NCBI GenBank assembly: GCA_035285805.1
Contig: JAYKJE010000021.1
Span: forward strand, 156,956 to 220,955
Source of the DNA: a bacterium
GTDB taxonomy: Bacteria > Cyanobacteriota > Sericytochromatia > S15B-MN24 > UBA4093
DNA: 64,000 nt
Direction of reading: 5' to 3'
The position numbers were made by a program, and so were the translations under genes. Under the pieces are notes generated by a model. That model saw nothing but the letters and a program-made list of their open reading frames with translations, was not told the origin of the DNA and searched no databases. How positions within the stretch are numbered: the stretch's first letter is position 1; every line of letters begins with the position of its first letter. Below, in pieces: positions 2,221-56,769 of the stretch.

Positions 2221-3560
2221 GAGGCCGTTTCCTCCGGTTCGATGAGCCGGTCCAGGGCGGCCGGTCGGATCCCCGTTGCCTCGTGCCGCTCACGGATGGG
2301 TACCCATCGGTGGAGTTCCTGCATCTGGATGATGTCACCTTCCATCCCGACCACCTCGGCCACACCCGTCACGCGACGCCGACCTTCCCGGCCCCGTTCG
2401 ACCTGGACGACGAGGTCGATCGCGCTGCGGATCTGTTCCCGGATCGCCCGGAGGGGGAGCTCGTGTCCTGCCATCAGGACCATCGTCTCGAGTCGCGACA
2501 GGGCATCCCGGACCGAGTTCGCGTGCAGCGTGGCGAGCGAGCCCTCGTGGCCCGTGTTCATGGCCTGGAGCATCGCGAGGGCCTCGGCACCGCGGACCTC
2601 ACCCAGGATGATCCGGTCCGGGCGCATGCGGAGGGCATGGCGCAGCAACTCGGACTGCGGAATGGCGCCCTGACCCTCGAGGTTGGGCGCCCGGGTCTCG
2701 AGGCGGACGACATGGGGTTGCTGGAGCTGCAACTCGGCCGCGTCCTCGATCGTCACCAGCCGTTCGCGCGGCGGGATGAACCCTGACAGGACGTTCAGCA
2801 AGGTGGTCTTTCCCGAACCCGTGCCGCCCGAGATCAGGATGTTGAGCTTGCTCTCGACCGCGCGCCGGAGGAAGGTCGCGATCCCGTCATCCCAGGAACC
2901 CCAGGCGAGCAACTCATCCGGGCGGATGGGGTCGCGCCGGAACTTCCGGATCGTCAGGCACGGCCCGTCGATCGCGAGCGGTGGCAGGATGGCATGAATG
3001 CGACTTCCGTCGGCGAGGCGAGCGTCGCAGGCCGGAGTGCTCTCGTCGACGCGACGGCCGACGGCCGACACGATCCGGTCGATGATCGTGCGCAGGTGCG
3101 TCACGTCCCGGAAGGCCACCTCGGTGAGCGTGAGCCGTCCCTCGCGCTCCACGTAGACCCGGTGGGGCCCGTTGACCATGATCTCGGTGACCCCGTCTTC
3201 CGCCAGCAACGGTTCTATCGGCCCCAGCCCCCGGACCTCGTGGAGGATGGCGCGAACGAGCGTGTCACGTTCCTGGGCGGCCCGGATCCGCCAGCTGGGC
3301 GGGGTGCCTGGCGCCTGCAGCACGCCCTGCAACTCGAGGGCGATCGCCGCTTCGAGCGCCTCCTGGGGCGTCTGCTCGTCGAGGGCGTGGGTCCGCATGT
3401 TGTCGACCAGGCAGCGATGGACCCGGGCTCGCAGCGCGTGGCCGGCCTCGATCTCCTCAGCGGGAGGGGTAGGCCGTCCGGGGTTCAGACCCGGTGCGGC
3501 GGGTGCGAGAGTCGCGATGGTCGCGGGGGGCGGCGGGGCGGGGCGAGCTCGTCGGAACAT
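2214..3560 (-). CDS. cpaF: Tad/Flp pilus secretion ATPase CpaF/TadA
   Basis: Walker A ISGGTGSGKTT, and the Asp/His boxes of T2SS-E-type ATPases (VTIEDAAEL..., LQAMNTGHEGSLATLHAN). Confidence 0.9.
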   Translation of the reverse strand: MFRRARPAPPPPATIATLAPAAPGLNPGRPTPPAEEIEAGHALRARVHRCLVDNMRTHALDEQTPQEALEAAIALELQGVLQAPGTPPSWRIRAAQERDTLVRAILHEVRGLGPIEPLLAEDGVTEIMVNGPHRVYVEREGRLTLTEVAFRDVTHLRTIIDRIVSAVGRRVDESTPACDARLADGSRIHAILPPLAIDGPCLTIRKFRRDPIRPDELLAWGSWDDGIATFLRRAVESKLNILISGGTGSGKTTLLNVLSGFIPPRERLVTIEDAAELQLQQPHVVRLETRAPNLEGQGAIPQSELLRHALRMRPDRIILGEVRGAEALAMLQAMNTGHEGSLATLHANSVRDALSRLETMVLMAGHELPLRAIREQIRSAIDLVVQVERGREGRRRVTGVAEVVGMEGDIIQMQELHRWVPIRERHEATGIRPAALDRLIEPEETASC

Positions 3561-14479: not shown

Positions 14480-14757
14480 TGGATACTCCGCTGCTCACCC
14501 GTGCCGAGGTCGTCGAGCGCATCGAGCGCTTCAATGCCTGCCTGGCTCGCGAACACGAACTCAAGAAGAAGCTGGTCACCATGAAGATCCGCGGCGATTT
14601 CCAGCGCGTGCGCGAGATGATGTCCGAGCACGACGCCCTCATCGCCGAGATCAGTCGCATCCAGCTCGAGGAGATGGTGCCCATCATCGTGGAGCTGGAC
14701 CGTTTCACCAAGGCAGGCCTCGCCGTCCTGGAAGCCTACAACCGTGACAAGTCGTAA
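14479..14757 (+). CDS. hypothetical small helical protein (92 aa)
   Basis: Start overlaps the upstream stop (ATGA). The downstream rSAM gene begins 14 nt before its stop, so it is translationally coupled on both sides. Confidence 0.5.
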   Translation: MDTPLLTRAEVVERIERFNACLAREHELKKKLVTMKIRGDFQRVREMMSEHDALIAEISRIQLEEMVPIIVELDRFTKAGLAVLEAYNRDKS

Positions 14758-16588
14758 AGCCCTGCTGGTCTTTCCCCCGCAGTGGACCCCCCAGAATCCG
14801 CACTTCGCCCTGCGCGCTCTGGCGGGTCACCTGCGGGCCAACGGTATCGAGGTCGCCGTGCGCGACCTCAATGTCGAGTACTACGATTCCATCCTGACGC
14901 CGGAAAGCCTCTCGCTGGCCCGGGATCGGATCCGTCTGGACCTGGAGTACCTCGGATATCAGACCATCATCCGGCAGATGATCGACGAGCAGAGCCACCA
15001 GGCGGACGTCGACGCAGCTCGGTTCATGGCCATGAAGCGATTCGAGGACAACCATCCCGGTGCCCTCGATCGCCTGCCGGGCCTGATCCTCGACGCGAAG
15101 GAGACTCTCCGCGATCCACGCCGCTATTACAACCCGGATTACCTGATCGACGCGTTCCGGACCATCGATCTGGCGTTGCAGGCCCTGTCGTTGCCGTACC
15201 ATCCGGCCAACCTCTCGTACATCTACTTCGACCAGCCGGATGCCCGGTTCACGATCCGCACGGCGCACGAGTTCGCCAGCTCACCCACGGCGAACATGTT
15301 TCATGCGTTCTTCGAGGCGCAGATCGATTCGCTCCTGGCCGAGGAGGCATCCTACATCGGCATCTCGATCAACTCGTTCTCCCAGGTGCTGCCGGGCCTC
15401 ACGCTGGCGCACATGCTGCGGAAAGCCGCGCCGCCCGGTGTCCATATCGGACTGGGGGGCAATCACCTGGGGCGCGTCAAGGAGACGTTGCTCGAGAGAC
15501 CCGATTTCTTCGAGTTTTTCGCCCACAGTCTCGCGACCAGCGAGGGCGAGCAGCAACTGGTCCACATGGTCCAGGCCCTCGTGGACGGACGGAGCCTCGA
15601 GGATGTCCCCAACATCTTGTATGTCGGCGAGGACGGCGTGCCCCGGGCCTCGAAGGCGGCGAAGCCGCCGCAGATGGACCGGATCGGTCACCAGGACCTG
15701 GCCGGTCTGCCCATGGACCTCTACTTCTCCCCCGAGCCCTTGCTGACCATCCAGGCCAGCAAGGGGTGCTACTGGGGTAAATGCTCGTTCTGCGATTCGT
15801 TCTTCGGAGTCGATCTCGACTTCAAGTCGATCGACAAGCTCGTCGCCGAGATCCGTCATCTCAAGGAGACCTACGGCGTCCGGTTGTTCCAGTTCATCGA
15901 CGAGGCGCTCCCACCGAACTACATGGAGGCGATGGCCCGACGCTTCATCGAGGAGAAGCTGGACATCCAGTGGTTCAGCAACGGACGCCTCGAGACGGGC
16001 TTCACCCCGGAGCTCATGAGCCTCCTGCATGAGGCCGGTCTGCGCATGGTCCTGTGGGGATACGAGACGGGGGCGCCGCGCATCCACAACCTCATCAAGA
16101 AGGGGGTGGCGTTCAGCCGGCGCCATGACATCCTTCGCGGGGCGGCAGAGGCGGGCATCTTCAATTTCGCGTACATCTTTTTCGGCTTTCCCTCCGAGAC
16201 CCTCGAGGAGGCAAACGCCACGATCGATGCCATGTGCGAGAACACGGACATCATTCACGCGTACGGACGCTCGGTCTTCACCCTCGGCAAGCAGAGCCCG
16301 CTCTACGCCGATCTGGAGAAGAACGGAGACATTCTCGAGGCCGTCGTGGACATCGAGGATCTGTCGTCCAACATCTCGTTCAAGACCCGTGGTGGCATGT
16401 CCGACGAGGAACTGCATGCGGTCATGAAATCGTGCACCACCCGGTGCGCCGAGGCCTATGACCACGCGCTGTGGTTCTACCTCCGGAGCCGGGAGAACAT
16501 CCACTACTACCTGGCCCGGTTCGGGGCCGAGCACGTGCGGAAGGCCACGTTCAAGCGATTCCATGCCCAGCCCGTCGAGCAGGCCTGA
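14744..16588 (+). CDS. B12-binding domain radical SAM protein (class B rSAM-like) with variant CX4CX2C cluster motif
   Basis: N-terminal B12-binding-like region (KALLVFPPQW...). Fe-S motif KGCYWGKCSFCDSF. Elongated TIM-barrel-like rSAM core. 614 aa. Confidence 0.8.
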   Translation: MTSRKALLVFPPQWTPQNPHFALRALAGHLRANGIEVAVRDLNVEYYDSILTPESLSLARDRIRLDLEYLGYQTIIRQMIDEQSHQADVDAARFMAMKRFEDNHPGALDRLPGLILDAKETLRDPRRYYNPDYLIDAFRTIDLALQALSLPYHPANLSYIYFDQPDARFTIRTAHEFASSPTANMFHAFFEAQIDSLLAEEASYIGISINSFSQVLPGLTLAHMLRKAAPPGVHIGLGGNHLGRVKETLLERPDFFEFFAHSLATSEGEQQLVHMVQALVDGRSLEDVPNILYVGEDGVPRASKAAKPPQMDRIGHQDLAGLPMDLYFSPEPLLTIQASKGCYWGKCSFCDSFFGVDLDFKSIDKLVAEIRHLKETYGVRLFQFIDEALPPNYMEAMARRFIEEKLDIQWFSNGRLETGFTPELMSLLHEAGLRMVLWGYETGAPRIHNLIKKGVAFSRRHDILRGAAEAGIFNFAYIFFGFPSETLEEANATIDAMCENTDIIHAYGRSVFTLGKQSPLYADLEKNGDILEAVVDIEDLSSNISFKTRGGMSDEELHAVMKSCTTRCAEAYDHALWFYLRSRENIHYYLARFGAEHVRKATFKRFHAQPVEQA

Positions 16589-27009: not shown

Positions 27010-28752
27010 ATGCATGTCATGGACAGCCTGATGGTGGCCGCCACCATCCACGAGCTACGCCACATGGTCGTCGGGTCTCGCATCGACCGGATCCATCTCC
27101 CCACGGCCTGGGAGATGGTGTGGATCCTCCGCGGCCCGGGAGGGCCGCGTCGCCTCCTGTTCTCGGCCCGGGGCGTGCATGCGCGCCTCCATCTCACGGA
27201 GCGTCGCTTCGAGAATCCGGCTCAGCCCCCGGCTTTCTGCATGCTGCTGCGCAAGCATCTCGAGGGGGCTCGCATCCTCCGGATCGAGCAACCCGGTCTC
27301 GAGCGGGTCGTCCAGATCGTCTGTACCGGTCGGGACGAACTCGGGGACCCCACGGAACGCGCGCTGGTGGCCGAGATCACCGGCAAGCATGCCAACTGGC
27401 TGCTGCTCGATCGGCCCTGGGGAAACATCCTGGGCCTCCTCCGTCCCGTCAGCGAACGCGAGAGCCGGGAGCGCCAGTTGCTTCCCGGTCTCCCCTACGA
27501 TCCTCCCCCAGTTCCGGCTGATCGTCTCGATCCGGGAGCGTTCGATCCCTTTTCCCTGCCCGTGGGGCCCGGAGCGACAGAACGCCCTGTCCGGGAGGTC
27601 CTTCTGGCACGGGTGCACTCTCTCTCGCGGGCCGCGCTCGGGGAACTGCTCGCAGCGGCCGGGATCGACCCGACGCTCCCGGCATGCCAGCTCGAAGTGA
27701 CGGCGCGTTCGCGCCTGGCCGAGGTCTGGGAGACTTTCCGGAAGGAACTGGCAGAGGGGGACTTCCGGCTCACGCGAACCGCCGAGGGTTTCGAGGTGCT
27801 GCGGCTGGGCCGTCCGGGGGATTCACTGCCGCCGGGGGAGACCCTGGATGCCTGGTTCGGTGCTCGCTGGGACCGGGAGGCCATCGAGCGCCAGCGCCAG
27901 CACCTGCAGCGCGAGGTTCGGGAGCGGTTCGACCGGCTCGATTCCCGACGTCATGCTCTTGAAGGGGCGCTCGAGCGCGTCGATACGGCTACCGACTGGA
28001 AACTCTGGGGAGATCTGCTCCTCACCTTCGCCCACGAAGTGCCACGCGGTGTCTCGAGTCATGCGCTTCCGGACATCCAGAGCGACGACTCCCGGCTCGT
28101 CACCATCCCTCTCGACCCCACGCTGGATGCCACCCAGAACGCCCAGCGCCACTACCGGCGCTATCAGAAGGCGCGCTCGGGCGAGCAGGTCACGCGCGAC
28201 CTGCTCGCAGCCGCCTCGGTAGAGCGGGCTTACTGGGAGGGGGTCGCCATCGCGGTCGAGCGTGCCACCGACCTCGAAACCCTCGCGGAAATCTCTCATG
28301 AGGTCCGGCCACCCGTGTCCCTGCCGGGGCGCCAGCGAACCCGTTCACCCGAGCCTCGGCCGCTTCAACTCGTGTCCCGGGATGGTTTCACCGTCTGGCT
28401 CGGCCGCAACAATCGCCAGAACGACTGGTTGACCTTCAAGCTTGCCCGTCCCGAGGACTGGTGGTTCCATGCGCGCAACATTCCGGGCTCGCACGTCCTC
28501 GTGCGCGCTGAAGGCCAGGGCGAGCTTCCGGAGCGCACCCTGCTGGATGCAGCCATGCTCGCTGCTGGATTCAGCCAGGCTCGCCTGTCGAGCGGCGTCC
28601 CCGTCGTCTACACGCGTCGGAAGCACGTCTGGAAACCCTCGGGGGCGCTACCGGGCTTCGTTCATTACGAGCGGGAGCGTACGGTCCACGTGACGCCCGA
28701 CGCCGATCCTGTGGCCCTGTTTCAGGTCGGGGCCAGCGCATCCAGGGAGTAG
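27010..28752 (+). CDS. rqcH: Rqc2/RqcH homologue (NFACT family, fibronectin-binding protein A-like) ribosome quality-control protein
   Basis: NFACT-N region (..LRKHLEGARI..) and C-terminal NFACT-R/DUF814 (GFTVWLGRNNRQNDWLTFKLARPEDWWFHARNIPGSHVLV). Confidence 0.85.
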   Translation: MHVMDSLMVAATIHELRHMVVGSRIDRIHLPTAWEMVWILRGPGGPRRLLFSARGVHARLHLTERRFENPAQPPAFCMLLRKHLEGARILRIEQPGLERVVQIVCTGRDELGDPTERALVAEITGKHANWLLLDRPWGNILGLLRPVSERESRERQLLPGLPYDPPPVPADRLDPGAFDPFSLPVGPGATERPVREVLLARVHSLSRAALGELLAAAGIDPTLPACQLEVTARSRLAEVWETFRKELAEGDFRLTRTAEGFEVLRLGRPGDSLPPGETLDAWFGARWDREAIERQRQHLQREVRERFDRLDSRRHALEGALERVDTATDWKLWGDLLLTFAHEVPRGVSSHALPDIQSDDSRLVTIPLDPTLDATQNAQRHYRRYQKARSGEQVTRDLLAAASVERAYWEGVAIAVERATDLETLAEISHEVRPPVSLPGRQRTRSPEPRPLQLVSRDGFTVWLGRNNRQNDWLTFKLARPEDWWFHARNIPGSHVLVRAEGQGELPERTLLDAAMLAAGFSQARLSSGVPVVYTRRKHVWKPSGALPGFVHYERERTVHVTPDADPVALFQVGASASRE

Positions 28753-37414: not shown

Positions 37415-38149
37415 ATGCCTGGGCCGATATCCGGGAGCCGGTACGCGTGGGGGCTTGCCTTGCTCATCGTCACCGCGTGTGGGGGAGCGGTTCCGCATGC
37501 CGTGTCATCCGGGGGCCACGCCCTTGTCCGGCCCCACGGCCAGCTCCCCCCCTATCCAGCAGGTACCCTCATCGATCCCGTTCTCGCACCGATGGAGGTC
37601 GGAGGGGGCATCCTCGACCGCGGTCGGCCCGCCGCGGGAGTGGAGGTGTCCCTGGTGGAAGAACGCACATGGCGATCGATCTCGCTCAGGACGGGGGCCG
37701 ACGGGGTTTACCGGTCGCGGATCATGCGTCCGGGAAGGTATCACATCCACTATTACAACGATCGCGATCAGGACCGGGTGGGATTCTGGAAAACGCGCAC
37801 CCTGGTCCTGCTCGCAGGGCAATCAGGGGTCTGGCCAGCCTGGGACGTGCATCTGCGCGGGATGCGAAATGACCCTCCCCAGGGGGCGACGGTCGCCCTT
37901 CCCCTGTCCGTGCGTATCGTGCCACACCCTCAGGCCCTGCGAGTCTGGTTTCGGCTTCATGACCGGGGTGGCCCCGGCGGTCAGGCCCATTTCGTGAGTC
38001 CGGTGCTGGCGGGCCAGGGTCTGGAAAGGTACACGTACCCATCCGGAGCAGCTCGCCCCGGCTTCCAGCTCTGGGGTTACCAGTGGGATGCCGGGGCGGC
38101 TGGAGAGGGCGGCTGCCTCTTCCAGGACGTGTCGATTCGCGGTCAGTAG
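37415..38149 (+). CDS. lipoprotein with CarboxypepD_reg-like domain
   Basis: GAGAGGAGGA ribosome-binding site. Lipobox LLIVTACGG. AAGVEVSLVEE...TGADGVYRS motif. Confidence 0.55.
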   Translation: MPGPISGSRYAWGLALLIVTACGGAVPHAVSSGGHALVRPHGQLPPYPAGTLIDPVLAPMEVGGGILDRGRPAAGVEVSLVEERTWRSISLRTGADGVYRSRIMRPGRYHIHYYNDRDQDRVGFWKTRTLVLLAGQSGVWPAWDVHLRGMRNDPPQGATVALPLSVRIVPHPQALRVWFRLHDRGGPGGQAHFVSPVLAGQGLERYTYPSGAARPGFQLWGYQWDAGAAGEGGCLFQDVSIRGQ

Positions 38150-39513
38150 AACCGATCCGGATTCACCGCGCGTCCGTTCATCCGCACCTCGAAGTGCAGA
38201 TGAGGACCCGTCGCGTGGCCCGTCTGGCCCACGGTGGCGATGCGTTCGCCGCGCGACACGCGGTCGCCCTCGCCGACGTAGAGCCTGGCGCAGTGGGCGT
38301 AGCGCGTCACCATCCCGTTGGCATGGCGGATGTCGATCATGCGGCCGTAAGCACCGCTCCAGCCAGCCGACACGACGACTCCGTCCCGGACGGCCTTGAT
38401 GGGGGTACCCACGGTGTTGCAGATGTCCAGTCCCTGGTGCATGTGGCCATCACGCACCCCGAACCCGCTGGAAACGCGACCCGCTGCGGGCCACAGGAGA
38501 CGCTTCGCGGCCAGTCGCCCCAGGTCACCCAGGAGCCCACGCGAGGCGATCTTGCGACCATCCCGGAGACGGTACTTCCGGTCGAGACCTACGCTTCCGT
38601 CTTTCCCGGTGCTCTTCAACGTGGCATCGGTCGGCACGACGAGCAGGTCCCCGATCTGGAGCCGTGAGTGCGGCGTGAGACCGTTTGCTGCCAGGAGCGC
38701 CCGTGTCTTGACCCCGAGGCGATGGGCGATGACGGACGGGTTGTCGCCGGACTGGACCCGGTAGGTGCCAGGGCGACGGGAAGCGGCAGCGCGATGGCTT
38801 GCTCGGTCACCCTCATGACTCTCTGCCCGGGCGATCTCGTGGCGCTCCTGCGGGCGGTTCGCCCGGGCGAGCACGCGACTGACGGTTTCACCGCGCCGAA
38901 CGGCTGCGAGTTGCCCGGCCGCCTCCGTGCCGGTATAGCCTCCGCGATGCACCTCGTAGGTCGCGGCCAGGGCCGAACCGTCGCCCGTGCCCGGTTCGGT
39001 GGTGAAGACGACGATCCCCTCGGGCAGGCGGAGGACATCACCGGGGTGAAGGCGTCGCGGATCGACTCCGGGGTTGGCCTGCCGCAGCACGCGGGTCTTG
39101 ATCCCGAAGCGATGCGCGATGCCCGACAGGGTGTCTCCCGGACGGACGGCCACCTGCGTCAGGGGCACGGCGCGCGTCACGGGGGACGACGGCTTTGACG
39201 CCTGACGGAAAGTCAGCAGACGCGGACCGCCCAGCAGCACGGTCGGGAGCATCACGAGCACCGCCCCGGCAAGCAAGGCCCGGCGAGCAGCGGCACGGCG
39301 CACGATCGGGCGACGCCGACCCGGGTTGGTCATCGCGTATCTGAGGACACCCATTCCATCGAAGCTCGGCTGTTCCTGGTGAGTGGCCTTCTTGCGCGGG
39401 ATCCAGCGCTCCCAGCGATGCGTGGGCTCGCGGCGGCGCCGCGAATCGACCTGGAAGGCCGAGATCTCGGGCAGATCGGACGTGCTCGTGGGTGCGTTGT
39501 CAGACTCGAACAA
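38143..39513 (-). CDS. LysM-domain M23 family peptidoglycan endopeptidase
   Basis: Three LysM repeats (e.g. VRPGDTLSGIAHRFGIKTRVLRQANP). C-terminal M23 domain (HQGLDI...GTP..., HLHFEV). Confidence 0.85.
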   Translation of the reverse strand: MFESDNAPTSTSDLPEISAFQVDSRRRREPTHRWERWIPRKKATHQEQPSFDGMGVLRYAMTNPGRRRPIVRRAAARRALLAGAVLVMLPTVLLGGPRLLTFRQASKPSSPVTRAVPLTQVAVRPGDTLSGIAHRFGIKTRVLRQANPGVDPRRLHPGDVLRLPEGIVVFTTEPGTGDGSALAATYEVHRGGYTGTEAAGQLAAVRRGETVSRVLARANRPQERHEIARAESHEGDRASHRAAASRRPGTYRVQSGDNPSVIAHRLGVKTRALLAANGLTPHSRLQIGDLLVVPTDATLKSTGKDGSVGLDRKYRLRDGRKIASRGLLGDLGRLAAKRLLWPAAGRVSSGFGVRDGHMHQGLDICNTVGTPIKAVRDGVVVSAGWSGAYGRMIDIRHANGMVTRYAHCARLYVGEGDRVSRGERIATVGQTGHATGPHLHFEVRMNGRAVNPDRFY

Positions 39514-39549
39514 GCAAGAACCTCCAGGAAATGAACCGGCGGAAAACCA

Positions 39550-41694
39550 TCAGGAGTCGCTGATGGCCATCAGGAATTCGGCGTTGGACTTGGTCCGGCT
39601 GAGGCGATCGGCCAGGAACTCGGTGACCTCCGCGGTGTCACCTGCGTCCATCGTCTTGCGCAGGATGCGCTGCTTGCGCAGCTCTTCCGGGGAGAGCAAG
39701 AGCTCTTCCTTGCGCGTGCTGCTGCGCTTGATGTCGATCGCCGGGAAAATTCGACGATCGGCCAGCCGGCGATCGAGCGTGAGCTCGGAGTTGCCGGTCC
39801 CCTTGAACTCTTCGTAGATCACCTCGTCCATCCGCGAACCGGTGTCGATCAGCGCCGTCGCGATGATCGTGAGGGATCCCGACCGCTCGAGCTTGCGAGC
39901 CGCACCGAAGAAGCGCTTGGGCTTGTGCATCGCGTTGGGGTCGAGACCGCCCGAGAGGGTTCTCCCCGAGGGAGGCATGGCCGAATTGTAAGCCCGGGCC
40001 AGCCGCGTGATGGAATCCAGCAGGATCACGACATCGTGGCCGAGTTCGACCATCCGCTTGGCTCGTTCCATGACCAGCTCGGCGACCCGGACGTGATTTT
40101 CGGGCAACTCGTCGAAGGTCGAGGCGATGACCTCACCCTTGATCGAGCGCTGCATGTCCGTGACTTCCTCGGGGCGTTCGTCGATCAGCAGGGCCATCAG
40201 GTGCACTTCCGGATGGTTGTCCGTGATCGAGTTGGCCACCTGCTTGAGCAGCGTGGTCTTGCCTGCCTTGGGCGGCGACACGATCAGGGCGCGCTGGCCC
40301 TTGCCGAGCGGATTGAACAGGTCCATCAGCCGCATGCTGAGGTTGCTCGCGGTGGTCTCCAGGCGAAGGCGCTCGCACGGGTAAATCGGCGTGCGATTTT
40401 CGAAGGGGACGCGCCGCATGGCCTGGTCAGTGGGTTGTCCATTGACCGTTTCGGGACGGACGAGCACCTGGAACTTCTCACCCTCGCGGGGCGACCGGAT
40501 CTCACCCGCGACGATGTCGCCGGCCCAGAGGTCGTGCCGACGGATCATGCCCTGGCTGACGTAGATGTCGTCCGGCGACGGCAGATATTCGGAGACCCGC
40601 AAGAAACCGTATCCCTCACCGAGAATCTCGAGCACCCCGGAAGTGCGGACCGGCGTCCCTTCGGTCTGCCGGGTCTGGAGGACACGGATGACGAGTTCAC
40701 TGCGCCGCATCTTGCGGTAATTCCAGATACGCAGGGCCCGTGCGAGCTCGTGGAGCTCGGTGATGTCCATCTGAGGGACTGCCTGCGGATCGAACTGGAC
40801 CTCCGGGATTTCCGCATCCAGCCCCTGTTCGGCCATGATCGCTTCGTGAAGTTCCCGAGCCTCGCGGAGCTCGCGCATCTCGCGTTCGTTGGCCCGGTTG
40901 CCCCGGTTGTCGTCACGGAAGCCTGGATGAGGACGTCCGCCTCCACGGTTGTCCTGTCCGCGGCCACCGCGATCGCGTCCCCTGTCCCGATCCCGATCCC
41001 GATCCCGATCCCGGTCACGGTCACGGTGGCGTCCACCTTCCCGGAATCCCTGCTGCTGGCGGCCTTCACGCCCTCCCTCGGTGCGCTGTCCTTCCGGACG
41101 GCCTTCACGGCCTCCCTCGGTGCGCTGTCCTTCCGGACGGCCTTCACGGCCTCCTTCGGTGCGCTGTCCTTCCGGACGGCCTTCGCGGCTTCCCTCGGTG
41201 CGCTGTCCCTCCGGACGGCCTTCACGGCTTCCTTCGGGGCGCTGTCCCTCCGGGCGTCCTTCACGGGTGCCTTCCGGACGTCCGGCGCGGGGACCTTCGG
41301 CACGCTCGGTCTCCCTCGGTGCCCGCTCGCGACTTTCACCACGTGGCGGTCGTGAGGGCTGCGTCCCTGGCTCACCGTCGCTTTCGGGTCGCCTGACCGC
41401 GTTCTGGGCAGGAGCAGAACCTCCAGCCGGGGCCACTGCGGATTCCGTGGCAGGAGCGGACTCCTTACGTCGGGAGGTGCGCTGGGTGCGGGCAGGAGGG
41501 GTGGATTCAGCTGCAGCGGGGCTCTGTTCGGTCACGACAGGGGCCGAGGCAGCCTCGGCCTGAGCGGCCTGCCGGGCCTGAGCGGCGCGCGTGGGGCGTC
41601 GGCGGCTGCTGGTGGCAGGTTGGGTGTCCGGAAGGGCAGCAGAGCCGGGGGCCGTGGCGTCGGACGGAGCCGGACGCGTCGCGGAAGTATCCAA
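39550..41694 (-). CDS. rho: transcription termination factor Rho with about 290-aa N-terminal R/E/G-rich low-complexity insertion domain
   Basis: C-terminal about 420 aa is canonical Rho (CSD-like RNA-binding domain, Walker [13 protein letters not shown] loops, [20 protein letters not shown]). The N-terminus contains ([13 protein letters not shown])x5 and (RD)x8. Confidence 0.95.
40985..41265. repeat. in-frame tandem repeats inside rho: about five copies of a 39-bp unit (GGCCTTCACGGCCTCCCTCGGTGCGCTGTCCTTCCGGAC) and a (CCCGAT)n hexanucleotide run
   Basis: Seen directly in lines 40981-41280. Encodes the [13 protein letters not shown] and RDRDRD repeats of the Rho N-terminal insertion. Confidence 0.8.
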
Positions 41695-41814
41695 GAGCCA
41701 GTCTCTCGCTTTCGAAGAGGAGATCCCCCTGAAGTCGCAGGCTTGAAATCAGATGTCAGGGGAAGTGACCACGGTCACCGTGCCACGCTAGCACGGCTGA
41801 CCTCAGTACGTCAA

Positions 41815-42078
41815 TCAGAAGGCTGCGGTCGCGAGCACGCGAACGAGCACCTGGACGACCAGCTGATAGACGAATACGGCGATCAGGGGCGAAATATCGA
41901 TGCCCCCGAGCGGCACGAGTCCCCGGAAGGGGCGCAGGGTCGGTTCCAGCAATCGATCCAGCAGCTGGACGGCCGGATGGTGCCGAGGAACGGACGGAAT
42001 CCAGGACAGGATGACCCAGATGAACAGCGCGAGTTGCCAGACCTGGAACACGTTCTGCACGAAGCGGGCGAGAAACAT
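41815..42078 (-). CDS. yggT: YggT family membrane protein (Ycf19-like)
   Basis: YggT signature (..VWQLALFIWVILSWIP...LEPTLRPFRGLVPLGGIDISPLIA..). Start at the internal Met avoids overlap with proC. Confidence 0.7.
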   Translation of the reverse strand: MFLARFVQNVFQVWQLALFIWVILSWIPSVPRHHPAVQLLDRLLEPTLRPFRGLVPLGGIDISPLIAVFVYQLVVQVLVRVLATAAF

Positions 42079-42079
42079 G

Positions 42080-42895
42080 TCAGGGGGCCTCCTGTCGACC
42101 GAGTTCACGCGAGCGGAGTGTCGCTGCCTTGACGGCCAGACAGAGCGTGGCGCGCACGGCAGCCTCTTCCAGGACCTGCAGGCCGGCCGCGGTGGTACCG
42201 GCGGGCGTGACGACCTGGTCCTTCAGTTCCGCAGGATGTTTGCCTGATTCCTGAACCAGGCGCGCTGCGCCGATGACGGTCTGGCAGACGAGATCGCGGG
42301 CGATCCGCCGCGGCAGGCCTTGCTGGACCCCGGCATCGATGAGGGCTTCCAGGATCAGAGTGACATAAGCGGGACCGCTGCCTGACAGCCCCGTCACGGC
42401 ATCAAAGTAGGCCTCGGGCAGGTCGAGAACTCGTCCGACGGCCCGGAACAGGCTCCTGGCCCGCTCCATGTGCGGTTCGGTCACGCTGGCGTTGCCGGCG
42501 AGGGCAGAAATGCCCTCGCCGATGACGCAGGGGGTGTTCGGCATGGAGCGGATCACGGGGGTGCCCGGGGGCAGTGCCTGTTCGAACCGCTCGAGACGGG
42601 CGCCGGCCACGATCGAGATTCCGAGTGTCCCCGGGCGCCAGGCCGACCCGACTTCGTGAAGGACCAGATCCAGCTGGACGGGCTTGATCGCGAACACCAC
42701 GGTCTCGCTGGACAGCGAGACCCGATTGTCAGTCGTGGTTCTCACTCCGTAGGTCGCGTTCAACCAGTCGAGACGCGCGTCGAGCGGGTCCGATACGGTG
42801 ATGCGGTGCGGCTGGACGCCATGCGTCACGAGGCCCTTGATGAGGGCCTCGGCCATGGTTCCACCACCTATCAGGGAGAGGGAACCCTCGACCAT
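42080..42895 (-). CDS. proC: pyrroline-5-carboxylate reductase
   Basis: LIGGGTMAEALIKGL Rossmann motif and ProC C-terminal dimerisation domain (..PAGTTAAGLQVLE..). Start is ATG at M25 of the track ORF, overlapping the sepF stop by 1 nt. Confidence 0.85.
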   Translation of the reverse strand: MVEGSLSLIGGGTMAEALIKGLVTHGVQPHRITVSDPLDARLDWLNATYGVRTTTDNRVSLSSETVVFAIKPVQLDLVLHEVGSAWRPGTLGISIVAGARLERFEQALPPGTPVIRSMPNTPCVIGEGISALAGNASVTEPHMERARSLFRAVGRVLDLPEAYFDAVTGLSGSGPAYVTLILEALIDAGVQQGLPRRIARDLVCQTVIGAARLVQESGKHPAELKDQVVTPAGTTAAGLQVLEEAAVRATLCLAVKAATLRSRELGRQEAP

Positions 42896-43377
42896 CAGCG
42901 AACGCGCCAGAACAGCTTGTCGTTGCTCGCTGCGGCTGCGGGAGCCTGCACCTGGGCCACCATCCACTGGGTGTCGTGGGAGAGGGCATTGATCTTCACG
43001 TTCGACGGCGTGAAGAGGAAGATGGCCTCACCGATCCGTTCCTGGTGTCCGTCGAGAGCGTGGCAGGCGCCAGAGACGAAGTCCACGAGCCGCTGGGACT
43101 GTTCGGAGGTCAGGCCCTGGAGGTTGAGGATCACGGCGCGGCGCGTGCGCAGGTTGTCGATGATGCTCAGTGCGTCATCGAACGATCGCGGCTCGAGGAC
43201 GACCATCTCGGACTGGGGCGCCGTCGGGAAGCCCACGATGTTGTTGCCCGGAGTCTTGTTGCTGCCCGGACGCGTGGCCTTGGGTTCGTCCGTCTGCTCC
43301 TCGACCTGATCGTGCTCGAACGTCTCGTCCGGCTCGAAGCCGAGAAACTTCTGCAAGTTACTCCAAATGGCGCTCAT
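42895..43377 (-). CDS. sepF: cell division protein SepF
   Basis: N-terminal amphipathic helix MSAIWSNLQKFLGF. Conserved C-terminal SepF domain (..AVILNLQGL...RLVDFVSGA..). Confidence 0.8.
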   Translation of the reverse strand: MSAIWSNLQKFLGFEPDETFEHDQVEEQTDEPKATRPGSNKTPGNNIVGFPTAPQSEMVVLEPRSFDDALSIIDNLRTRRAVILNLQGLTSEQSQRLVDFVSGACHALDGHQERIGEAIFLFTPSNVKINALSHDTQWMVAQVQAPAAAASNDKLFWRVR

Positions 43378-44105
43378 GGACCCTCCTGAATGTGTGACCC
43401 CGCTCCCGTGGGGCGTTCGCCGAAAATTGCCCTGCCGATTCGCACCAGGGTCGCCCCTTCCTCGATGGCCACCTCGAAATCCGTCGACATCCCCATCGAC
43501 AGTTCGAGACCGCCCGGCCAGTCCGTGACGTCCTGCAGATCCTGCGTCGCGAACTCTCTCAACCTCCTGAAGACCGGTCTGACCTCCTCCGGATCATCGA
43601 CCCGGGGCGGAATGGTCATGAGCCCCCTGACGCGAACCCCTGACCAGCCTTGACAAGTTTTGAGTGCGGTCGCTACCTGGTCAAGCATGAAGCCTGACTT
43701 GGTCACCTCCCGGGCGACGTTGACCTGGAGGAGGACGTCCTGAACCCCGTTCGACGAACGAGCGCACCGGTCGATCGAGGCCAGGAGTTCCAGGCTGTCG
43801 ACCGAGTGGATGAGCTTGAACCGGGAACCACAGCGCCCCACCTTGTTGCGCTGCAGGTGTCCGATGAAGTGCCATTCGAAGTCGCAGTCAGCCAGGGCTT
43901 CCTGTTTCTCGATGGCCTCGACCACCCTGCTCTCTCCCACGAGGGCCCCTTCCAGCCATGCGGCTTGCCGCACCGTCGCGGCTGGAACCCCTTTGGTGAC
44001 CAGAACGACACGAACCGCCTCGGCGGGTCGCCCCGATCGTTCGGCCCGGGCACGCACGCGCGCCAGAACCTCGGTCATCCGTTCGTGGACAGAGAGCTTG
44101 TTCAC
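43374..44105 (-). CDS. yggS: YggS family pyridoxal-phosphate homeostasis protein (alanine racemase N-terminal-like fold)
   Basis: Motifs VVLVTKG...LEGALVGESRVVEA, HFIGHLQRNKV, SVDS. Overlaps the sepF start by 4 nt. Confidence 0.85.
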   Translation of the reverse strand: MNKLSVHERMTEVLARVRARAERSGRPAEAVRVVLVTKGVPAATVRQAAWLEGALVGESRVVEAIEKQEALADCDFEWHFIGHLQRNKVGRCGSRFKLIHSVDSLELLASIDRCARSSNGVQDVLLQVNVAREVTKSGFMLDQVATALKTCQGWSGVRVRGLMTIPPRVDDPEEVRPVFRRLREFATQDLQDVTDWPGGLELSMGMSTDFEVAIEEGATLVRIGRAIFGERPTGAGSHIQEGP

Positions 44106-44301
44106 GGCATCAAGTCAACATCACGTCTTGATTGCACTCTATCACCTCACGGTGACTCAGACAATAAACCGCGCCGTCGTTCCGTTCGGTAACCCCGATC
44201 ACGCGTCTCACGAAGTCCTCCGTGCGGGCTGGACGATGCGTTTTCCCTGCTCGATCGTCACGATCCGGGACCACGCCCGGCTGGCGGGGCGGGAGGTGTC
44301 C

Positions 44302-45366
44302 ATGCGTCCTGGGATCCTGCGGTCAGGTTCGTGTGCCGTGCTGGTGAGCCTGGTCCAGGCCTGTGCCGTGTCTCAACCGTTCATGGTGTCACATGCCGCA
44401 TGGTCCATCCAGGCAACCGTCTCGCAGGCGAAGGGAGAGACCCCTCCGTACCCGGAGTCGTGGGTCTTGCAGCGGATCCGGGGGCCCCGTTCCGTATCCG
44501 TCGAGGGCGCAGGTCCCGTCGTCGCGGTCCTGGACACGGGGGTCGATCCTGACCACCCTGCCTGGAAGGGGCGCGTGCTTCCCGGGATCGATCTCCTGGG
44601 TGGGGAAGTCTGGCAGCATCAGGGACAGCGTTTCGAGTATCGCGGCCGCGATGGTCACGGACACGGAACCCACGTGACGGGACTCGTCCTCGCGTCGACC
44701 ACGGCCTGTCCGGGGATCCGGGTCCTGCCCATCAAGGCCATGAGCCTCGCAGGCACGGGTGAGGACGATACGCTGGCTCGCGCCGTCCGCGAAGCGCTGC
44801 GCTGGCGAGGTTCCACCGGGGAGCGCGTTCGCGTGATCAATCTCTCGGTGGGGTCCAGGGCTCCCTCGTGGACGCTCAGGGAGGCACTCGCGGAGGCCTT
44901 GCGAGCCGGGGTGCTCACGGTCGTGGCCGCAGGCAACCGGGATCTCGGGATCGACTATCCGGCCGCCTGGCCCGAGGCCCTCGCGGTGGGGGCGACCACC
45001 CGGGACGATCTGCTGGCCCCGTATTCCAATCGCGGGAGCCAGCTGGCCATGTGCGCTCCAGGCGGCGATGAACTGGAGCCGGTACCTTCCTCATGGCCTT
45101 CCTATCTGACCTCGGTGGATCGGCAGACTGGTAGGGAAACCGTCCACCTGGTGGGTCATCTCGCGGGTACCTCGATGGCTGCCCCGCTCGTCAGCGGTGC
45201 AGCTGCCATGCTCTTCGCTCTCGCACCGGGGGCCTCTCCGGAGCAGGTGCGCGTGCACTTGCTCTCGCGGGCCGTGCCGCTGGGGCCTCAAGGTCCCGAT
45301 CCGTACTTCGGGGCCGGACGTCTCGACCTGACACGCCTGCTCGCGCCCTGGCTGGGGGCCTCGTGA
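44302..45366 (+). CDS. S8 family (subtilisin-like) serine peptidase, secreted
   Basis: GGGAGGTG ribosome-binding site. Signal peptide. Catalytic triad contexts VAVLDTGVD, HGTHVTG, GTSMAAPLVSGAAA. The upstream part of the track ORF overlaps yggS on the other strand. Confidence 0.85.
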   Translation: MRPGILRSGSCAVLVSLVQACAVSQPFMVSHAAWSIQATVSQAKGETPPYPESWVLQRIRGPRSVSVEGAGPVVAVLDTGVDPDHPAWKGRVLPGIDLLGGEVWQHQGQRFEYRGRDGHGHGTHVTGLVLASTTACPGIRVLPIKAMSLAGTGEDDTLARAVREALRWRGSTGERVRVINLSVGSRAPSWTLREALAEALRAGVLTVVAAGNRDLGIDYPAAWPEALAVGATTRDDLLAPYSNRGSQLAMCAPGGDELEPVPSSWPSYLTSVDRQTGRETVHLVGHLAGTSMAAPLVSGAAAMLFALAPGASPEQVRVHLLSRAVPLGPQGPDPYFGAGRLDLTRLLAPWLGAS

Positions 45367-54416: not shown

Positions 54417-55415
54417 ATGGCGAAGGGCAAGATCCTGGTGGTAGGAGGGGCGGGCTACATCGGCTCGCACGCCGTGAAGGCACTGGACGCGCGGGGATAT
54501 GACCTCGTGGTCCTCGATGATCTCTCGACCGGCTTCCGGGACGCCGTCGTGGCCGGGACCTTCGTCGAGGGCGACCTCGGCGATCGCCCGACGCTCGACC
54601 GTCTGTTCACGTCGCATGCCATCGAGGCGGTCATGCACTTCGCGGCCTTCGCCTACGTGGGTGAGAGCGTCCAGCAGCCCGGCAAGTATTACCGGAACAA
54701 CGTCGCGGCCACGCTCACGTTGCTCGAGGCGATGCGCGACCACGGGATCCGGAACTTCATCTTCTCGTCCACCTGTGCGACGTATGGCATCCCGCAGCAG
54801 GTCCCGATCCCCGAAACGCATCCGCAGTGGCCCATCAACCCGTACGGCTGGACCAAGCTGATGGTCGAGCGGATGCTGGCCGACTTCGACCGGGCCCACG
54901 GTCTTCGCTACGTCGCCTTCCGGTATTTCAACGCGGCCGGTGCGGATCCGGACGGTTTCCTCGGGGAACGCCACGATCCCGAGACGCATCTGATCCCGCT
55001 CGTGCTCCGGGCGGCGGACGGGGGTGAACCGCTCAAGGTGTTCGGGGACGACTACCCCACGCCGGATGGCACCTGCATCCGCGACTACATCCACGTCTCG
55101 GATCTCGCCGATGCTCACGTGCTCGGCCTCGAACGCCTGCTGGCCGGGGGAGAGAGCACGGTCTACAACCTGGGCAACGGTCAGGGGTTCTCCGTCAAGG
55201 AGGTCATCGCGGCCGCGGAGCGGGTGACCGGGCGGCCGGTCCCGCATGCGTTCGCCCCGCGCCGGGAAGGCGATCCGCCTGCCCTGGTCGGCTCGGCCGG
55301 GCGGGCCCGCGAGGAGCTCGGCTGGCAGCCTCGCTTCGCGGACCTCGAGACGATGATCGCGACGGCCCACCGCTTTCACCAGCGGCGTGTCCCGATGGGA
55401 GGACATCATGGGTAA
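54417..55415 (+). CDS. galE: UDP-glucose 4-epimerase
   Basis: VVGGAGYIGSH, YxxxK (YGWTK) and full-length GalE-like sequence. Confidence 0.9.
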   Translation: MAKGKILVVGGAGYIGSHAVKALDARGYDLVVLDDLSTGFRDAVVAGTFVEGDLGDRPTLDRLFTSHAIEAVMHFAAFAYVGESVQQPGKYYRNNVAATLTLLEAMRDHGIRNFIFSSTCATYGIPQQVPIPETHPQWPINPYGWTKLMVERMLADFDRAHGLRYVAFRYFNAAGADPDGFLGERHDPETHLIPLVLRAADGGEPLKVFGDDYPTPDGTCIRDYIHVSDLADAHVLGLERLLAGGESTVYNLGNGQGFSVKEVIAAAERVTGRPVPHAFAPRREGDPPALVGSAGRAREELGWQPRFADLETMIATAHRFHQRRVPMGGHHG

Positions 55416-56769
55416 GTACTTCGGCACCGACGGCATCCGGGGCCTCGCCAACCATGAGCTGCAGCCCGAACTGGCCTTCCGGCTGGGTCGCGCCGTCGCG
55501 GACGTGCTGGTCGGCGAGTCCAGCGGGCGCCCGGTCTTCTTCATCGGTCGGGACACCCGTCGCTCGGGCTCCATGCTCGAAGCTGCCCTCGCCGCCGGAC
55601 TGGCCTCGGCCGGGGTCGATGTCGAGTTGCTGGGCGTCGTGCCCACGCCGGCGGTCGCATGGCTGGTCGCCCGGCACGGGGCCGCGGCAGGGGCCATGAT
55701 CTCGGCCTCGCACAACCCCGCTCCCGACAACGGCATCAAGCTCTTCAGCGCTTCCGGTCACAAGCTGCCTGACGCCGTCGAGGCCCGGATCGAGGCGCTC
55801 CTCGATGCCGCCCTCGATACGTTGCCCCGACCCACGGGGGAAGGCGTCGGCGTCGTCACCGCGCGCGAGGATCGTGTCGAGACCTACGTCCAGCACCTGC
55901 TCACCCAGGCAGGTTCCAGGTTCGAGGGCAAGCGCGTCGTGCTGGATGTCGGTCACGGGGCTGCCACGGCCCTGGCGCCGCGGGTCCTGCGCGTGCTGGG
56001 GGCCGAGGTGACGGTGCTCCACGACGCTCCTGATGGAGACAACATCAACCGTGGGTGTGGCTCGACCCACCTGGAGGTGTTGCAGCAGGCGGTCCTCGAG
56101 GGATCCTACGACCTGGGGATCGCCTTCGACGGGGATGCCGATCGGATGCTCGCCGTGGACGAACGCGGGCGCATCGTGGATGGCGATCGCCTCCTGTTGA
56201 TCGCGCTCAGGCACGGGCTCGAGACGGGGCGCTACCCGATGCCTCGCGTGGTTTCCACGGTGATGAGCAACCTCGGGTTCGAGGAGGCCGTCCGGAATCT
56301 CGGAGGCGAACTGGTGCGGACCCCGGTCGGCGATCGGTACGTTCTCGAGGCCATGCGCGAGCAGGGGATCCTGCTCGGGGGCGAGCAGAGCGGCCACGTG
56401 ATCTTCCTGGATGCCAATACCACGGGTGACGGGCTGCTCTCGGCGGTCCGGCTCCTCGCAGCCGTGGTGGCGGCAGGTAACCGGCTCTCTGAACTGGCGG
56501 ACACGATGGTCGATTTTCCGCAGATTCTCCGGAACGTGCGGGTGCGCTCGACGGCCGGCTGGCAGGATCACGCCGTCATCCGGGAGGCGATCGCCGTCGC
56601 CACCTCCGAGCTGGAGGGGGTCGGTAGGGTGCTGGTCCGGGCTTCCGGCACGGAACCGCTCATTCGCATCATGGTCGAGGCGCGGGACGCGACGCTCGTG
56701 GAGTCGACGGTCACCCGCCTGGCCGACGTCATCACGGCCGCTCTGGAGGCCGTCGAACCCGTCGCCTAG
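55408..56769 (+). CDS. glmM: phosphoglucosamine mutase
   Basis: MGKYFGTDGIRG N-terminus and active-site serine loop. GGGAGGA ribosome-binding site. Overlaps the galE 3' end by 8 nt. Confidence 0.9.
   Translation: MGKYFGTDGIRGLANHELQPELAFRLGRAVADVLVGESSGRPVFFIGRDTRRSGSMLEAALAAGLASAGVDVELLGVVPTPAVAWLVARHGAAAGAMISASHNPAPDNGIKLFSASGHKLPDAVEARIEALLDAALDTLPRPTGEGVGVVTAREDRVETYVQHLLTQAGSRFEGKRVVLDVGHGAATALAPRVLRVLGAEVTVLHDAPDGDNINRGCGSTHLEVLQQAVLEGSYDLGIAFDGDADRMLAVDERGRIVDGDRLLLIALRHGLETGRYPMPRVVSTVMSNLGFEEAVRNLGGELVRTPVGDRYVLEAMREQGILLGGEQSGHVIFLDANTTGDGLLSAVRLLAAVVAAGNRLSELADTMVDFPQILRNVRVRSTAGWQDHAVIREAIAVATSELEGVGRVLVRASGTEPLIRIMVEARDATLVESTVTRLADVITAALEAVEPVA

Follow-up and report, generated by a model that had tools for sequence, protein, structure and literature searches.

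Additions to the Rho termination factor have been surveyed and, in some cases, studied experimentally. An "initial region" is present in 18.7% of Rho sequences; these regions reach up to 352 aa, are associated with high GC content and are predicted to be disordered (PMC11347177). To bind structured, GC-rich Rut RNAs, Mycobacterium tuberculosis Rho depends on its disordered NID (PMC13650167). Disordered regions of Rho that contain tandem repeats are also on record: Schumbera et al. 2023 (PMC10284900) describe 14 copies of YQSRGD in Clostridium symbiosum and 5 copies of RNYQD in Blautia obeum, both Lachnospiraceae. The initial annotation of the DNA analysed here had stated that N-terminal additions to Rho are lineage-specific and have been tied to altered RNA binding and to phase separation, and this agrees with PMC11347177, PMC13650167 and PMC10284900. 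Their presumed benefit is to suit a universal termination motor to the RNA of a given lineage, for example structured GC-rich transcripts, or to stress by way of condensates. Disordered, repeat-bearing Rho additions have already been described, and the tail reported below is a well-documented kind of variation.

The rho gene and the region ahead of its helix bundle

The window, by which we mean the whole 64-kb stretch of DNA analysed (GC content ~62-72%), contains a complete rho gene (Table 1). Its 714-aa product scored 627.5 bits against NF006886 (cut-off 315) and 622.6 bits against TIGR00767 (cut-off 509.45), and is a full-length member of both Rho equivalog families. The match to the curated Rho profiles spans aa 306-712, with profile positions 6-412 of 413 falling on aa 306-710. 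Pfam placed Rho_N, the OB fold and the RecA-type ATPase in this order, the ATPase domain carries the Walker-type invariant columns (alignment A1), and residues 10-414 of Escherichia coli Rho aligned with aa 310-709 (E = 2.9e-138). AlphaFold2 modelled the Rho core with a pLDDT of ~85-95. An exact-product look-up of the 714-aa protein returned no record, and a scan of GTDB genomes with the full protein gave, among the matches listed, only sequences of at most 66% identity from other phyla. A DNA pattern scan of metagenomes returned 10 loci, with Rho present in L087 only. A 476-aa antisense ORF (39925-41355, + strand) runs across the conserved Rho core and was for this reason discarded as an artefact of high GC. 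NCBIfam and Pfam scans of 20 further ORFs of the window revealed no family diagnostic of a taxon.

Table 1. Features of the rho locus, in coordinates of the window
Feature	Position	Strand	Residues and remarks	Basis
rho gene	39550..41694	-	complete, 714 aa, TTG start; end coordinate includes stop codon	ORF listing, NCBIfam, Pfam
N-terminal "initial region"	40780..41694	-	aa 1-305, ahead of the helix bundle of Rho	profile starts at aa 306
Conserved arginine-rich motif	41551..41604	-	aa 31-48	alignment of seven NTEs
A/P/S/T/E-rich low-charge spacer	41290..41550	-	aa 49-135; scattered Arg, grades into R/E-rich sequence	
39-bp in-frame minisatellite	41056..41289	-	aa 136-213; one degenerate and five near-identical 13-aa units	
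(RD)7 dipeptide run	40984..41025	-	aa 224-237	TRF and codon listing
Extra alpha-helix, conserved	40828..40899	-	aa 266-289, directly upstream of the helix bundle	AlphaFold2
Rho_N helix bundle	40669..40770	-	aa 309-342	PF07498, 28.6 bits (cut-off 24.9)
Rho RNA-binding OB fold	40429..40641	-	aa 352-422	PF07497, E = 1.1e-26
RecA-type ATPase domain	39718..40335	-	aa 454-659	PF00006, E = 3.8e-25
yggT-rho spacer/leader, conserved	41695..41814	-	starts TTGACG	alignment of four leaders

With residue 10 of E. coli Rho aligned to aa 310, the additional ~305 aa all lie upstream of Rho_N. The 9-aa gap between the end of Rho_N (aa 342) and the start of Rho_RNA_bind (aa 352) holds no insertion region. Because the extra region precedes the helix bundle, it is an N-terminal extension (NTE) and not an insertion within the N-terminal domain. 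[quoted passage not shown] In the comparison with M. tuberculosis Rho (7oqh), the best matching stretch opened with chain residue 246 facing aa 351 of the present protein, and when the whole set of PDB chain sequences, full-length MtbRho among them, was searched with aa 1-305 by phmmer, no Rho was matched at E <= 10. Among the 120 closest Rho homologues, 28 have at least 50 aa ahead of Rho_N, in stretches that are mostly rich in R/D/E/G. The Rho of P0009, a close relative labelled Sericytochromatia, is a 432-aa protein without the tail.

Disorder is predicted for the tail up to ~aa 263. AlphaFold2 assigned pLDDT values below 50 to aa 1-34, 46-108 and 110-263, so that within the spacer (aa 49-135) only aa 109 is excepted, and the tail falls in the disordered zone of the Uversky charge-hydropathy plot, with 5.6% hydrophobic residues. 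By prediction, then, the protein possesses a long disordered region of the kind found in phase-separating Bacteroides thetaiotaomicron Rho. The arginine-rich motif is the best-conserved element of the disordered part among seven aligned NTEs, and a weak helix (pLDDT ~50) is predicted at aa 37-45; aa 30-45 recall the arginine-rich RNA-binding peptides of the lambda N and Rev type, a resemblance that we take to be a lead only. The spacer contains 21% charged residues at aa 49-105. Directly before the bundle, the extra helix was modelled with block mean pLDDT values of 88 (aa 271-280) and 79 (aa 281-290), and this segment is kept in the window sequence and in L087, L001, P0121, P0003 and P0004.

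In composition the tail is a well-mixed, near-neutral R/E/G polyampholyte and is not prion-like. It is 38% charged, with a net charge per residue of +0.013, the charges of the repeats are very evenly mixed (kappa 0.008-0.03), and its 305 residues include 3 aromatics, 20 Q and 5 N (Q+N 8%).

The initial annotation had described a canonical Rho core behind a long disordered N-terminus, which NCBIfam, Pfam and AlphaFold2 bear out. Its R/E/G-rich N-terminus of 290 aa was long as stated, but the size is corrected to ~305 aa, ~263 of them predicted to be disordered, and the term "insertion" was wrong, since Pfam and the E. coli alignment place the region before the helix bundle, as the initial region of a Rho Type 2a protein. 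The prion-like behaviour that it had raised is unsupported by a composition of this kind; a prion-like domain of the Clostridium botulinum Rho type would be Q/N-rich with few charges.

Translation of the N-terminal region and history of its repeats

Comparison of orthologous sequences showed that the N-terminal region is translated and under purifying selection. Between the window and L001, omega was 0.13 for the NTE, and codon position 3 accounted for 96 of the 140 differences; omega was 0.06 for the repeat part and 0.29 for aa 1-135. Seven related loci have in common a TTG start, an M[D/E]TSA N-terminus and, in the leader, an invariant CGAAAGCGAG box at -20..-11 (41705-41714). The predicted fold of the leader RNA was no better than that of shuffled sequences (z = -0.35), and neither a consensus sigma-70 promoter nor an intrinsic terminator was found around the rho gene. 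GC3 was 0.63 in the NTE vs. 0.84 in the core, an atypically low value that is probably explained by amino-acid and repeat composition.

The 39-bp array is the only strong tandem repeat of the window. TRF reported it at 41060-41266 (5.3 copies, 93% matches, no indels) with a score of 337, the next best score being 76, and the unit had 4 matches at <=3 mismatches vs. 0.00 expected from 100 shuffles. Read in frame, it encodes five 13-aa units, EGQR[P/T]EG[S/G]REGR[P/Q], which occupy aa 149-213 and follow a degenerate unit at aa 136-148; pairwise, the 39-nt units differ by 1-7 nt. A second tract is a pure hexamer run at 40985-41013 with 4.8 copies (TRF); it reads TCCCGA along the + strand and CGGGAT in coding orientation. 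The (RD)7 run is contiguous and continues as RG-RD-RG, and its first two RD are coded CGT GAC.

Both tracts vary among relatives. Against 5 units and (RD)7 in the window, L087, a strain of 98.6% identity, carries six of the 39-bp units (6.3 copies) and (RD)4, and L001, a 91%-identical relative, has five (5.6 copies) and (RD)3; L002 has (RD)2. The six units of L087 stand in a different order from those of the window, with the first and last units identical in the two and flanks that are ~1% different. In a sister lineage, a 10-aa unit is present three times in P0121 and twice in P0001; sister lineages thus carry other tandem repeats, of similar composition, in place of the module. Length differences of +39, -18, -24 and +30 nt were found, all multiples of 3, as are the units of 39 and 6 nt, and the locus does not have the make-up of a phase-variable on/off contingency locus. 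The variants seen (+39, -18, -24 nt) are all in frame, and slippage alters the length of the protein without switching its expression. Between close strains, both tracts gain or lose copies by in-frame slippage or by unequal recombination.

Units were 3.8-4.0 nt apart within a genome vs. 8.6 nt between genomes (window and L001 arrays), and synonymous differences were fixed across all units of an array. A five-unit array is already present at the same site in L001, with a core dS of 0.25. The closer similarity of units within than between genomes argues for concerted evolution as opposed to a simple recent expansion, and indicates that continuing homogenisation keeps an older array uniform.

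Several statements of the initial annotation bear on these tracts. Its five near-identical 13-aa units are confirmed by TRF and by in-frame reading, whereas "perfect" repeats with single-nucleotide differences overstated an array of 93% identity. The hexanucleotide behind its (RD)8 does exist, pure for 4.8 units, but the count was too high by one. The copy-number variation that it had offered as a potential is real, as L087 and L001 differ from the window in repeat counts. Its view that near-perfect repeats imply recent expansion was half right, the array being an older one, shared with L001, that is homogenised continually.

Homologues of the tail were also sought with the NTE alone. A phmmer search of 1.84 billion representatives gave 13 matches and no further NTE homologues; the matches were rejected as spurious repeat-to-repeat pairings with unrelated periodic PEG/EGR-repeat proteins, including dsRBD, EF-hand and polysaccharide deacetylase proteins, and their best stretches fell within aa 125-227. 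A word-indexed search scored 0 homologues among 8000 low-complexity candidates.

Two readings would make the tail or its repeats illusory. If Rho were made from an internal ATG at aa 272, the upstream 270 codons would be untranslated and the repeats would belong to a long leader at the 5' end. The JGI call for P0002, a 98%-identical orthologue, does begin at that Met and yields 442 aa, and a GC-rich genome can contain long open frames by chance, as the 476-aa antisense ORF illustrates. We give this next to no credence, and reject the internal ATG because the Met is not conserved, being Ile or Leu in relatives, and because the frame upstream is under purifying selection, with the third-position bias and low omega given above. 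Further, every indel has a length divisible by 3, seven orthologues of as little as ~60% identity keep the frame open, and the start codon TTG is conserved together with the upstream box and the N-terminal residues. Alternatively, the array or its copy number might be an assembly artefact. Short-read assemblers can collapse or expand near-identical 39-bp units, and all of the sequences compared are metagenome contigs, with copy numbers taken from assemblies and not from reads spanning the array. An artefact is nonetheless very unlikely, because three independent assemblies agree on an array of 5-6 units, in frame and identically placed, and because the longest exact internal repeat, 44-58 nt, is shorter than usual read lengths; it is also below the k = 141 of some contig names. 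Distinguishing SNPs on the units, and the agreement of the terminal units between the window and L087, point the same way.

Automated gene calls shorten such proteins, 442 aa being called where ~706 aa are encoded, and this biases surveys of Rho architecture.

Possible roles of the tail

The best explanation, which taken as a whole we consider reasonably probable, is that the window rho is an ordinary, functional gene whose product carries a ~305-aa initial region and belongs to Rho Type 2a. The tail runs from the conserved N-terminal arginine-rich motif through an Ala/Pro-rich spacer and an R/E/G/D module to the conserved extra helix adjoining the helix bundle. The module, strongly charged and near-neutral, is the product of the 39-bp minisatellite and of the RD-coding hexanucleotide microsatellite. 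In the hexamer, six tails could form a flexible arginine-rich corona beside the primary RNA-binding sites, which might increase avidity for nascent RNA and favour capture of structured GC-rich transcripts. The repeat module may act as a spacer or valency element, with selection on its length and composition and not on its exact sequence. We infer that the tail serves as a disordered RNA-capture corona by analogy with other high-GC Rho factors, experiments on M. tuberculosis and M. luteus Rho having established such a role for their disordered insertions. Speaking against it, the near-neutral tail is not as evident a polycation as the R/G-rich inserts of actinobacteria, it precedes the helix bundle and they follow it, and by phmmer against PDB chains it does not resemble the M. 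tuberculosis insert in sequence.

The tail might instead serve mainly to drive Rho into condensates under stress by liquid-liquid phase separation, by analogy with B. thetaiotaomicron, in which case repeat number would tune the saturation concentration. A long, arginine-rich and predicted disordered tail with multivalent, repeated units is what this reading calls for, phase separation has been widely predicted for additional regions of Rho (PMC11347177, PMC10284900), and a preprint, as cited in PMC13650167, suggests condensates for the M. tuberculosis NID. Its extremely well-mixed charges, net charge of about zero and mere three aromatics make a primary role of this kind doubtful. According to polyampholyte theory, mixed charges, near-zero net charge and few aromatics favour expanded, soluble chains over self-coacervation. 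Condensate formation and RNA capture are compatible and need not exclude one another. A different possibility is that the repeat module has no specific function and is tolerated, slippage-prone filler, in a region of which no more than the N-terminal motif and the helix before the bundle would be of consequence. Copy number drifts among close strains, the repeat sequences differ between lineages without conservation across them, and close relatives labelled Sericytochromatia, such as P0009, have a tail-less Rho. We regard this as rather improbable, as the repeat part has an omega of 0.06 against L001, every tail-bearing lineage keeps an R/E/D/Q/G-rich repeat module, total tail length is held steady at ~210-310 aa across these lineages, and the frame is preserved without exception.

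One may speculate further that a Sericytochromatia-like branch of the Cyanobacteriota kept Rho with a length-tunable disordered tether ending in a conserved arginine-rich motif, and that in-frame slippage of the minisatellite and microsatellite, together with concerted evolution, acts as an evolutionary tuning knob for the reach or valency of an essential, genome-wide termination factor, shifting the termination landscape between strains; this is a long shot. The locus does provide a clean natural series, near-identical strains differing mainly in repeat number (5 vs. 6 units; (RD)3, (RD)4 and (RD)7), and with its help one could examine if Rho activity is tuned by how long the disordered tail is. 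To our knowledge, all studied members of the Cyanobacteriota lack Rho, and the factor is present here in non-photosynthetic relatives of cyanobacteria. Neither its presence there nor the bias in gene calls alters the present understanding of Rho.

Comparison with described Rho additions

The disordered region of B. thetaiotaomicron Rho, which phase separates, and the prion-like domain of C. botulinum Rho are, like the tail, lineage-specific disordered additions to the N-terminal half of the protein. They lie between helix bundle and OB fold and are either E/K-rich plus Q/N-rich or N-rich, in contrast to the low Q+N and high charge content found here. The Lachnospiraceae proteins resemble the present one in that, according to PMC10284900, their disordered regions arose by independent tandem duplication of short peptides rich in R and D/E; the unit described here is instead 13 aa long, has no aromatics and is found at another position. 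We know of no strain-level analysis of copy number or concerted evolution in that paper.

With the NIDs of M. tuberculosis and M. luteus (PMC8828861, PMC13650167) the tail shares a high-GC host and an R+G-rich, hydrophilic, disordered character, and those regions, 150-260 aa in length, are likewise beside the primary RNA-binding site and poorly conserved in sequence save for the part nearest the folded domain. They differ in their location between helix bundle and OB fold, where the tail comes before the bundle, in the nearly complete balance of arginines by acidic residues here, and in sequence, similarity being undetectable.

The closest counterpart is Rho Type 2a (Moreira et al. 2024, PMC11347177), exemplified by Xanthomonas Rho. 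In both, a region of >25 aa stands ahead of the N-terminal domain and nothing is inserted between Rho_N and the RNA-binding domain; both have a biased composition, A/P-rich at first and R-rich after that, predicted disorder and a high-GC host, and the 305 aa found here are inside the reported range (<=352 aa; PMC11347177). The present host is probably a Sericytochromatia-like member of the Cyanobacteriota, for which the survey recorded no Rho, and the charged module differs from the Type 2a regions described in being an R/E/G polyampholyte encoded by a DNA-level 39-bp minisatellite.

Domain layout and predicted disorder

The 714-aa product was identified as Rho by two NCBIfam equivalogs, NF006886 (627.5 bits; cut-off 315) and TIGR00767 (622.6 bits; cut-off 509), and by three Pfam domains in their expected places, which confirms the initial annotation of the gene. 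The Rho profile was nearly complete end to end, yet it was matched solely within aa 306–712, and aa 310–709 align to E. coli Rho residues 10–414. About 305 residues thus lie ahead of the position matching E. coli residue 1, and Rho_N and the OB fold are just 9 aa apart, so the protein carries an N-terminal extension (NTE) and no insertion within the N-terminal domain. The initial annotation was right that a long N-terminus had been added, but it had called this a 290-aa insertion, which understates its length and misplaces it.

Features of the rho locus in the window
Feature	Position	Strand	Remarks
rho	39550-41694	-	714-aa ORF; encloses 40985-41265
rho start codon, TTG	41692-41694	-	
Invariant CGAAAGCGAG box	41705-41714	-	11-20 nt upstream of the rho start (-20..-11); 7/7 loci
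yggT-rho spacer	41695-41814	-	120 nt; TTGACG first, directly after the yggT stop
39-bp tandem repeat	41060-41266		Tandem Repeats Finder: 5.3 copies, 93% matches, no indels, score 337
Pure hexamer run	40985-41013		Tandem Repeats Finder; TCCCGA on the + strand
Antisense ORF (rejected)	39925-41355	+	476 aa; spans Rho core and repeats, which read there as recurring 13-aa units
Rho_N	aa 309-342		Pfam
OB-fold RNA-binding domain	aa 352-422		Pfam
ATPase domain of Rho	aa 454-659		Pfam

AlphaFold2, run with a 39-sequence alignment, returned pLDDT values below 50 at aa 1–34, 46–108 and 110–263, with a weak helix at aa 37–45, a confident helix at aa 266–289 and, starting near aa 305, a confidently predicted Rho fold. 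Alignment of seven NTEs revealed a conserved N-terminus with a basic motif (aa 31–45), an A/P/S/T/E-rich spacer, a variable R/E/D/Q/G-rich module, and a conserved segment ending in (M/I)RE(L/M)REA(R/K)E that corresponds to the extra helix. The NTE contains 19% R, 13% G, 13% E, 12% A and 10% P; hydrophobic residues account for 5.6%, and 3 residues are aromatic. Charged residues make up 38%; the net charge per residue is +0.013, and the charges are distributed very evenly (kappa 0.096 across the NTE, 0.008–0.03 in the repeat parts). The long, R/E/G-rich N-terminus is accordingly predicted to be disordered over most of aa 1–263, as first proposed. Prion-like behavior, which had been mentioned for such Rho domains, finds no counterpart in the composition, as Q+N amounts to only 8%.

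Leader sequence and translation of the extension

The NTE is translated and selectively constrained. Comparison contigs were L087 (98.6% DNA identity over 9.6 kb), L001 (91.2% over 9.3 kb) and L002 (∼79%). Across 297 NTE codons aligned with L001, differences at codon positions 1/2/3 numbered 27/17/96, and omega was 0.13 for the NTE overall, 0.06 for its repeat part and 0.013 for the Rho core. Length differences among related rho loci were all multiples of three, and the reading frame is open in seven orthologues. The 476-aa antisense ORF was rejected as a high-GC artefact and is not a gene.

A TTG start followed by (D/E)TSA is present in all seven loci (the window, L087, L001, L002, L093, L094 and L095), and a clear Shine-Dalgarno sequence was seen near the TTG in none of them. 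Conservation of the TTG and of the CGAAAGCGAG box hints at a conserved translation start that may be deliberately weak or under regulation. For the L001 orthologue (P0002; L001 4001–5329), JGI annotates 442 aa from an internal ATG, where relatives have Ile or Leu in place of the Met; this call leaves ∼264 codons of true coding sequence “intergenic”, and the ENA call for P0001 (L002 398–2473) starts 8 codons late. Public gene calls thus miss or truncate the extension, and surveys that rely on annotated proteins under-count such Rho extensions.

The yggT-rho spacer hardly varies across the window, L087 and L001, and its 3′ half is retained even in L002 (79% identical overall). Its predicted structure was no better than that of shuffled sequence, and Rfam matches across the window were tRNAs only. 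L001 and L093 share the gene order found at 38143–45366 (S8 peptidase, yggS, sepF, proC, yggT, rho, LysM/M23 peptidase), and in L002 and L094 rho is likewise followed by the LysM/M23 peptidase; rho therefore adjoins a conserved cell-division and envelope cluster. Base composition of the rho mRNA switches sharply within 40945–41694 (-): codons 1–135 are C-rich and rut-like (C 0.42, G 0.30), the repeats are rich in purines (G 0.43, A 0.22, T 0.06), and GC3 is 0.63 in the NTE versus 0.84 in the core. Elsewhere the window carries a TadA/VirB11-type secretion ATPase (2214–3560, -), a B12-binding radical-SAM methyltransferase-like protein (14744–16588, +) and an RqcH/FbpA-type ribosome-rescue homologue (27010–28752, +).

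Copy-number variation and concerted evolution of the repeats

The 39-bp array is the sole strong tandem repeat across the 64 kb (runner-up score 76), and its unit gave 4 matches at ≤3 mismatches versus 0.00 expected from shuffles. In frame, a degenerate first unit is followed by five 13-aa units, EGQR(P/T)EG(S/G)REGR(P/Q), a 10-residue stretch and then (RD)7-RG-RD-RG. The five near-identical units of the initial annotation are therefore present; “perfect” is an overstatement, as units differ pairwise by 1–7 nt, and the reported (RD)8 consists of seven contiguous RD plus one separate RD.

The tail is repeat-built and length-polymorphic, and the suggested potential for copy-number variation is realised among close relatives: the window has five 39-bp units and (RD)7 (714 aa), L087 six units and (RD)4 (721 aa), and L001 five units and (RD)3 (706 aa). 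Unit order is A-B-C-D-E in the window versus A-X-D-X-B-E in L087, despite repeat flanks that differ at just 4/405 and 10/1422 nt; the two arrays share their end units, and a single hybrid unit occurs twice in L087. Between the window and L001, units are on average 3.8–4.0 nt apart within a genome versus 8.6 nt between genomes, with same-position units 7–10 nt apart. Several synonymous states are fixed array-wide and differ between the two (e.g. CGC vs. CGT, CGT vs. CGA), which raises dS to 1.04 in the repeat part, compared with 0.25 in the core. This pattern is the signature of concerted evolution via unequal exchange or conversion.

Near-perfect repeats had been taken to imply recent expansion. 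The 39-bp array, however, predates the divergence of the 91% relative, and its uniformity reflects continual homogenisation rather than simple recent expansion. The pure (CGGGAT) run arose in the window lineage by expansion of an RD tract that is older and uses mixed codons. Rho tails vary in copy number outside this lineage too, as a different in-frame 30-bp repeat (10 aa, QRERHEPR(D/E)(G/V)) occurs in the sister lineage in 2 copies in P0001 (L002 820–881) and in 3 in P0121, on another contig; still other arrays, of 15, 18, 21 and 30 bp, are present in more distant relatives. The longest exact internal repeat, 44–58 nt, argues against assembly collapse.

Relatives, possible role and known Rho additions

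A 2024 survey reported Rho absent from 33/33 Cyanobacteriota examined (PMC11347177), and our full-text literature search returned no paper naming Rho factor together with Sericytochromatia. Among named sequences, the closest Rho (71% core identity, 432 aa) belongs to a Sericytochromatia/Tanganyikabacteria MAG and is without the extension; the best named matches of the window GlmM (55387–56769) are all labelled Cyanobacteriota or Sericytochromatia (67–57% identity), above Negativicutes. Judged from these two genes, the DNA probably comes from a Sericytochromatia-like member of Cyanobacteriota. It may be only the photosynthetic branch that has lost Rho. Of the 120 closest Rho homologues, 28 carry ≥50 aa ahead of Rho_N and 17 carry ≥100 aa, and these N-termini are mostly R/D/E/G-rich. 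What the locus adds is a documented strain-level copy-number series of a Rho tail, and the occurrence of Rho in what is probably a non-photosynthetic lineage of cyanobacteria.

Six tails per hexamer would place a flexible arginine-rich corona beside the primary RNA-binding sites, which could make the capture of structured GC-rich transcripts more efficient. In this model the repeats might act as a spacer or valency element, with selection acting on composition and length, and the conserved arginine-rich motif near the N-terminus could form a functional tip, at present only a lead. [quoted passage not shown]

The tail belongs to a well-described class of Rho additions. In position it agrees on both counts with Type 2a Rho of Moreira et al., in which an additional region lies ahead of the N-terminal domain and none of more than 25 aa separates that domain from the RNA-binding domain, and it differs from the classical NID of M. 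tuberculosis, M. luteus and Bacteroides, which lies between the helix bundle and the OB fold. Such initial regions occur in 18.7% of Rho sequences, reach 352 aa, are compositionally biased and predicted to be disordered or phase-separating, and are associated with high GC (PMC11347177); tandem repeats in disordered regions of Rho have likewise been described previously (PMC10284900). No sequence similarity of the NTE to the M. tuberculosis insert was found. That insert, proven to be disordered and RNA-binding and required for >97% of selected Rut substrates, structured GC-rich ones especially (PMC13650167), is the best functional analogue of the extension described here.
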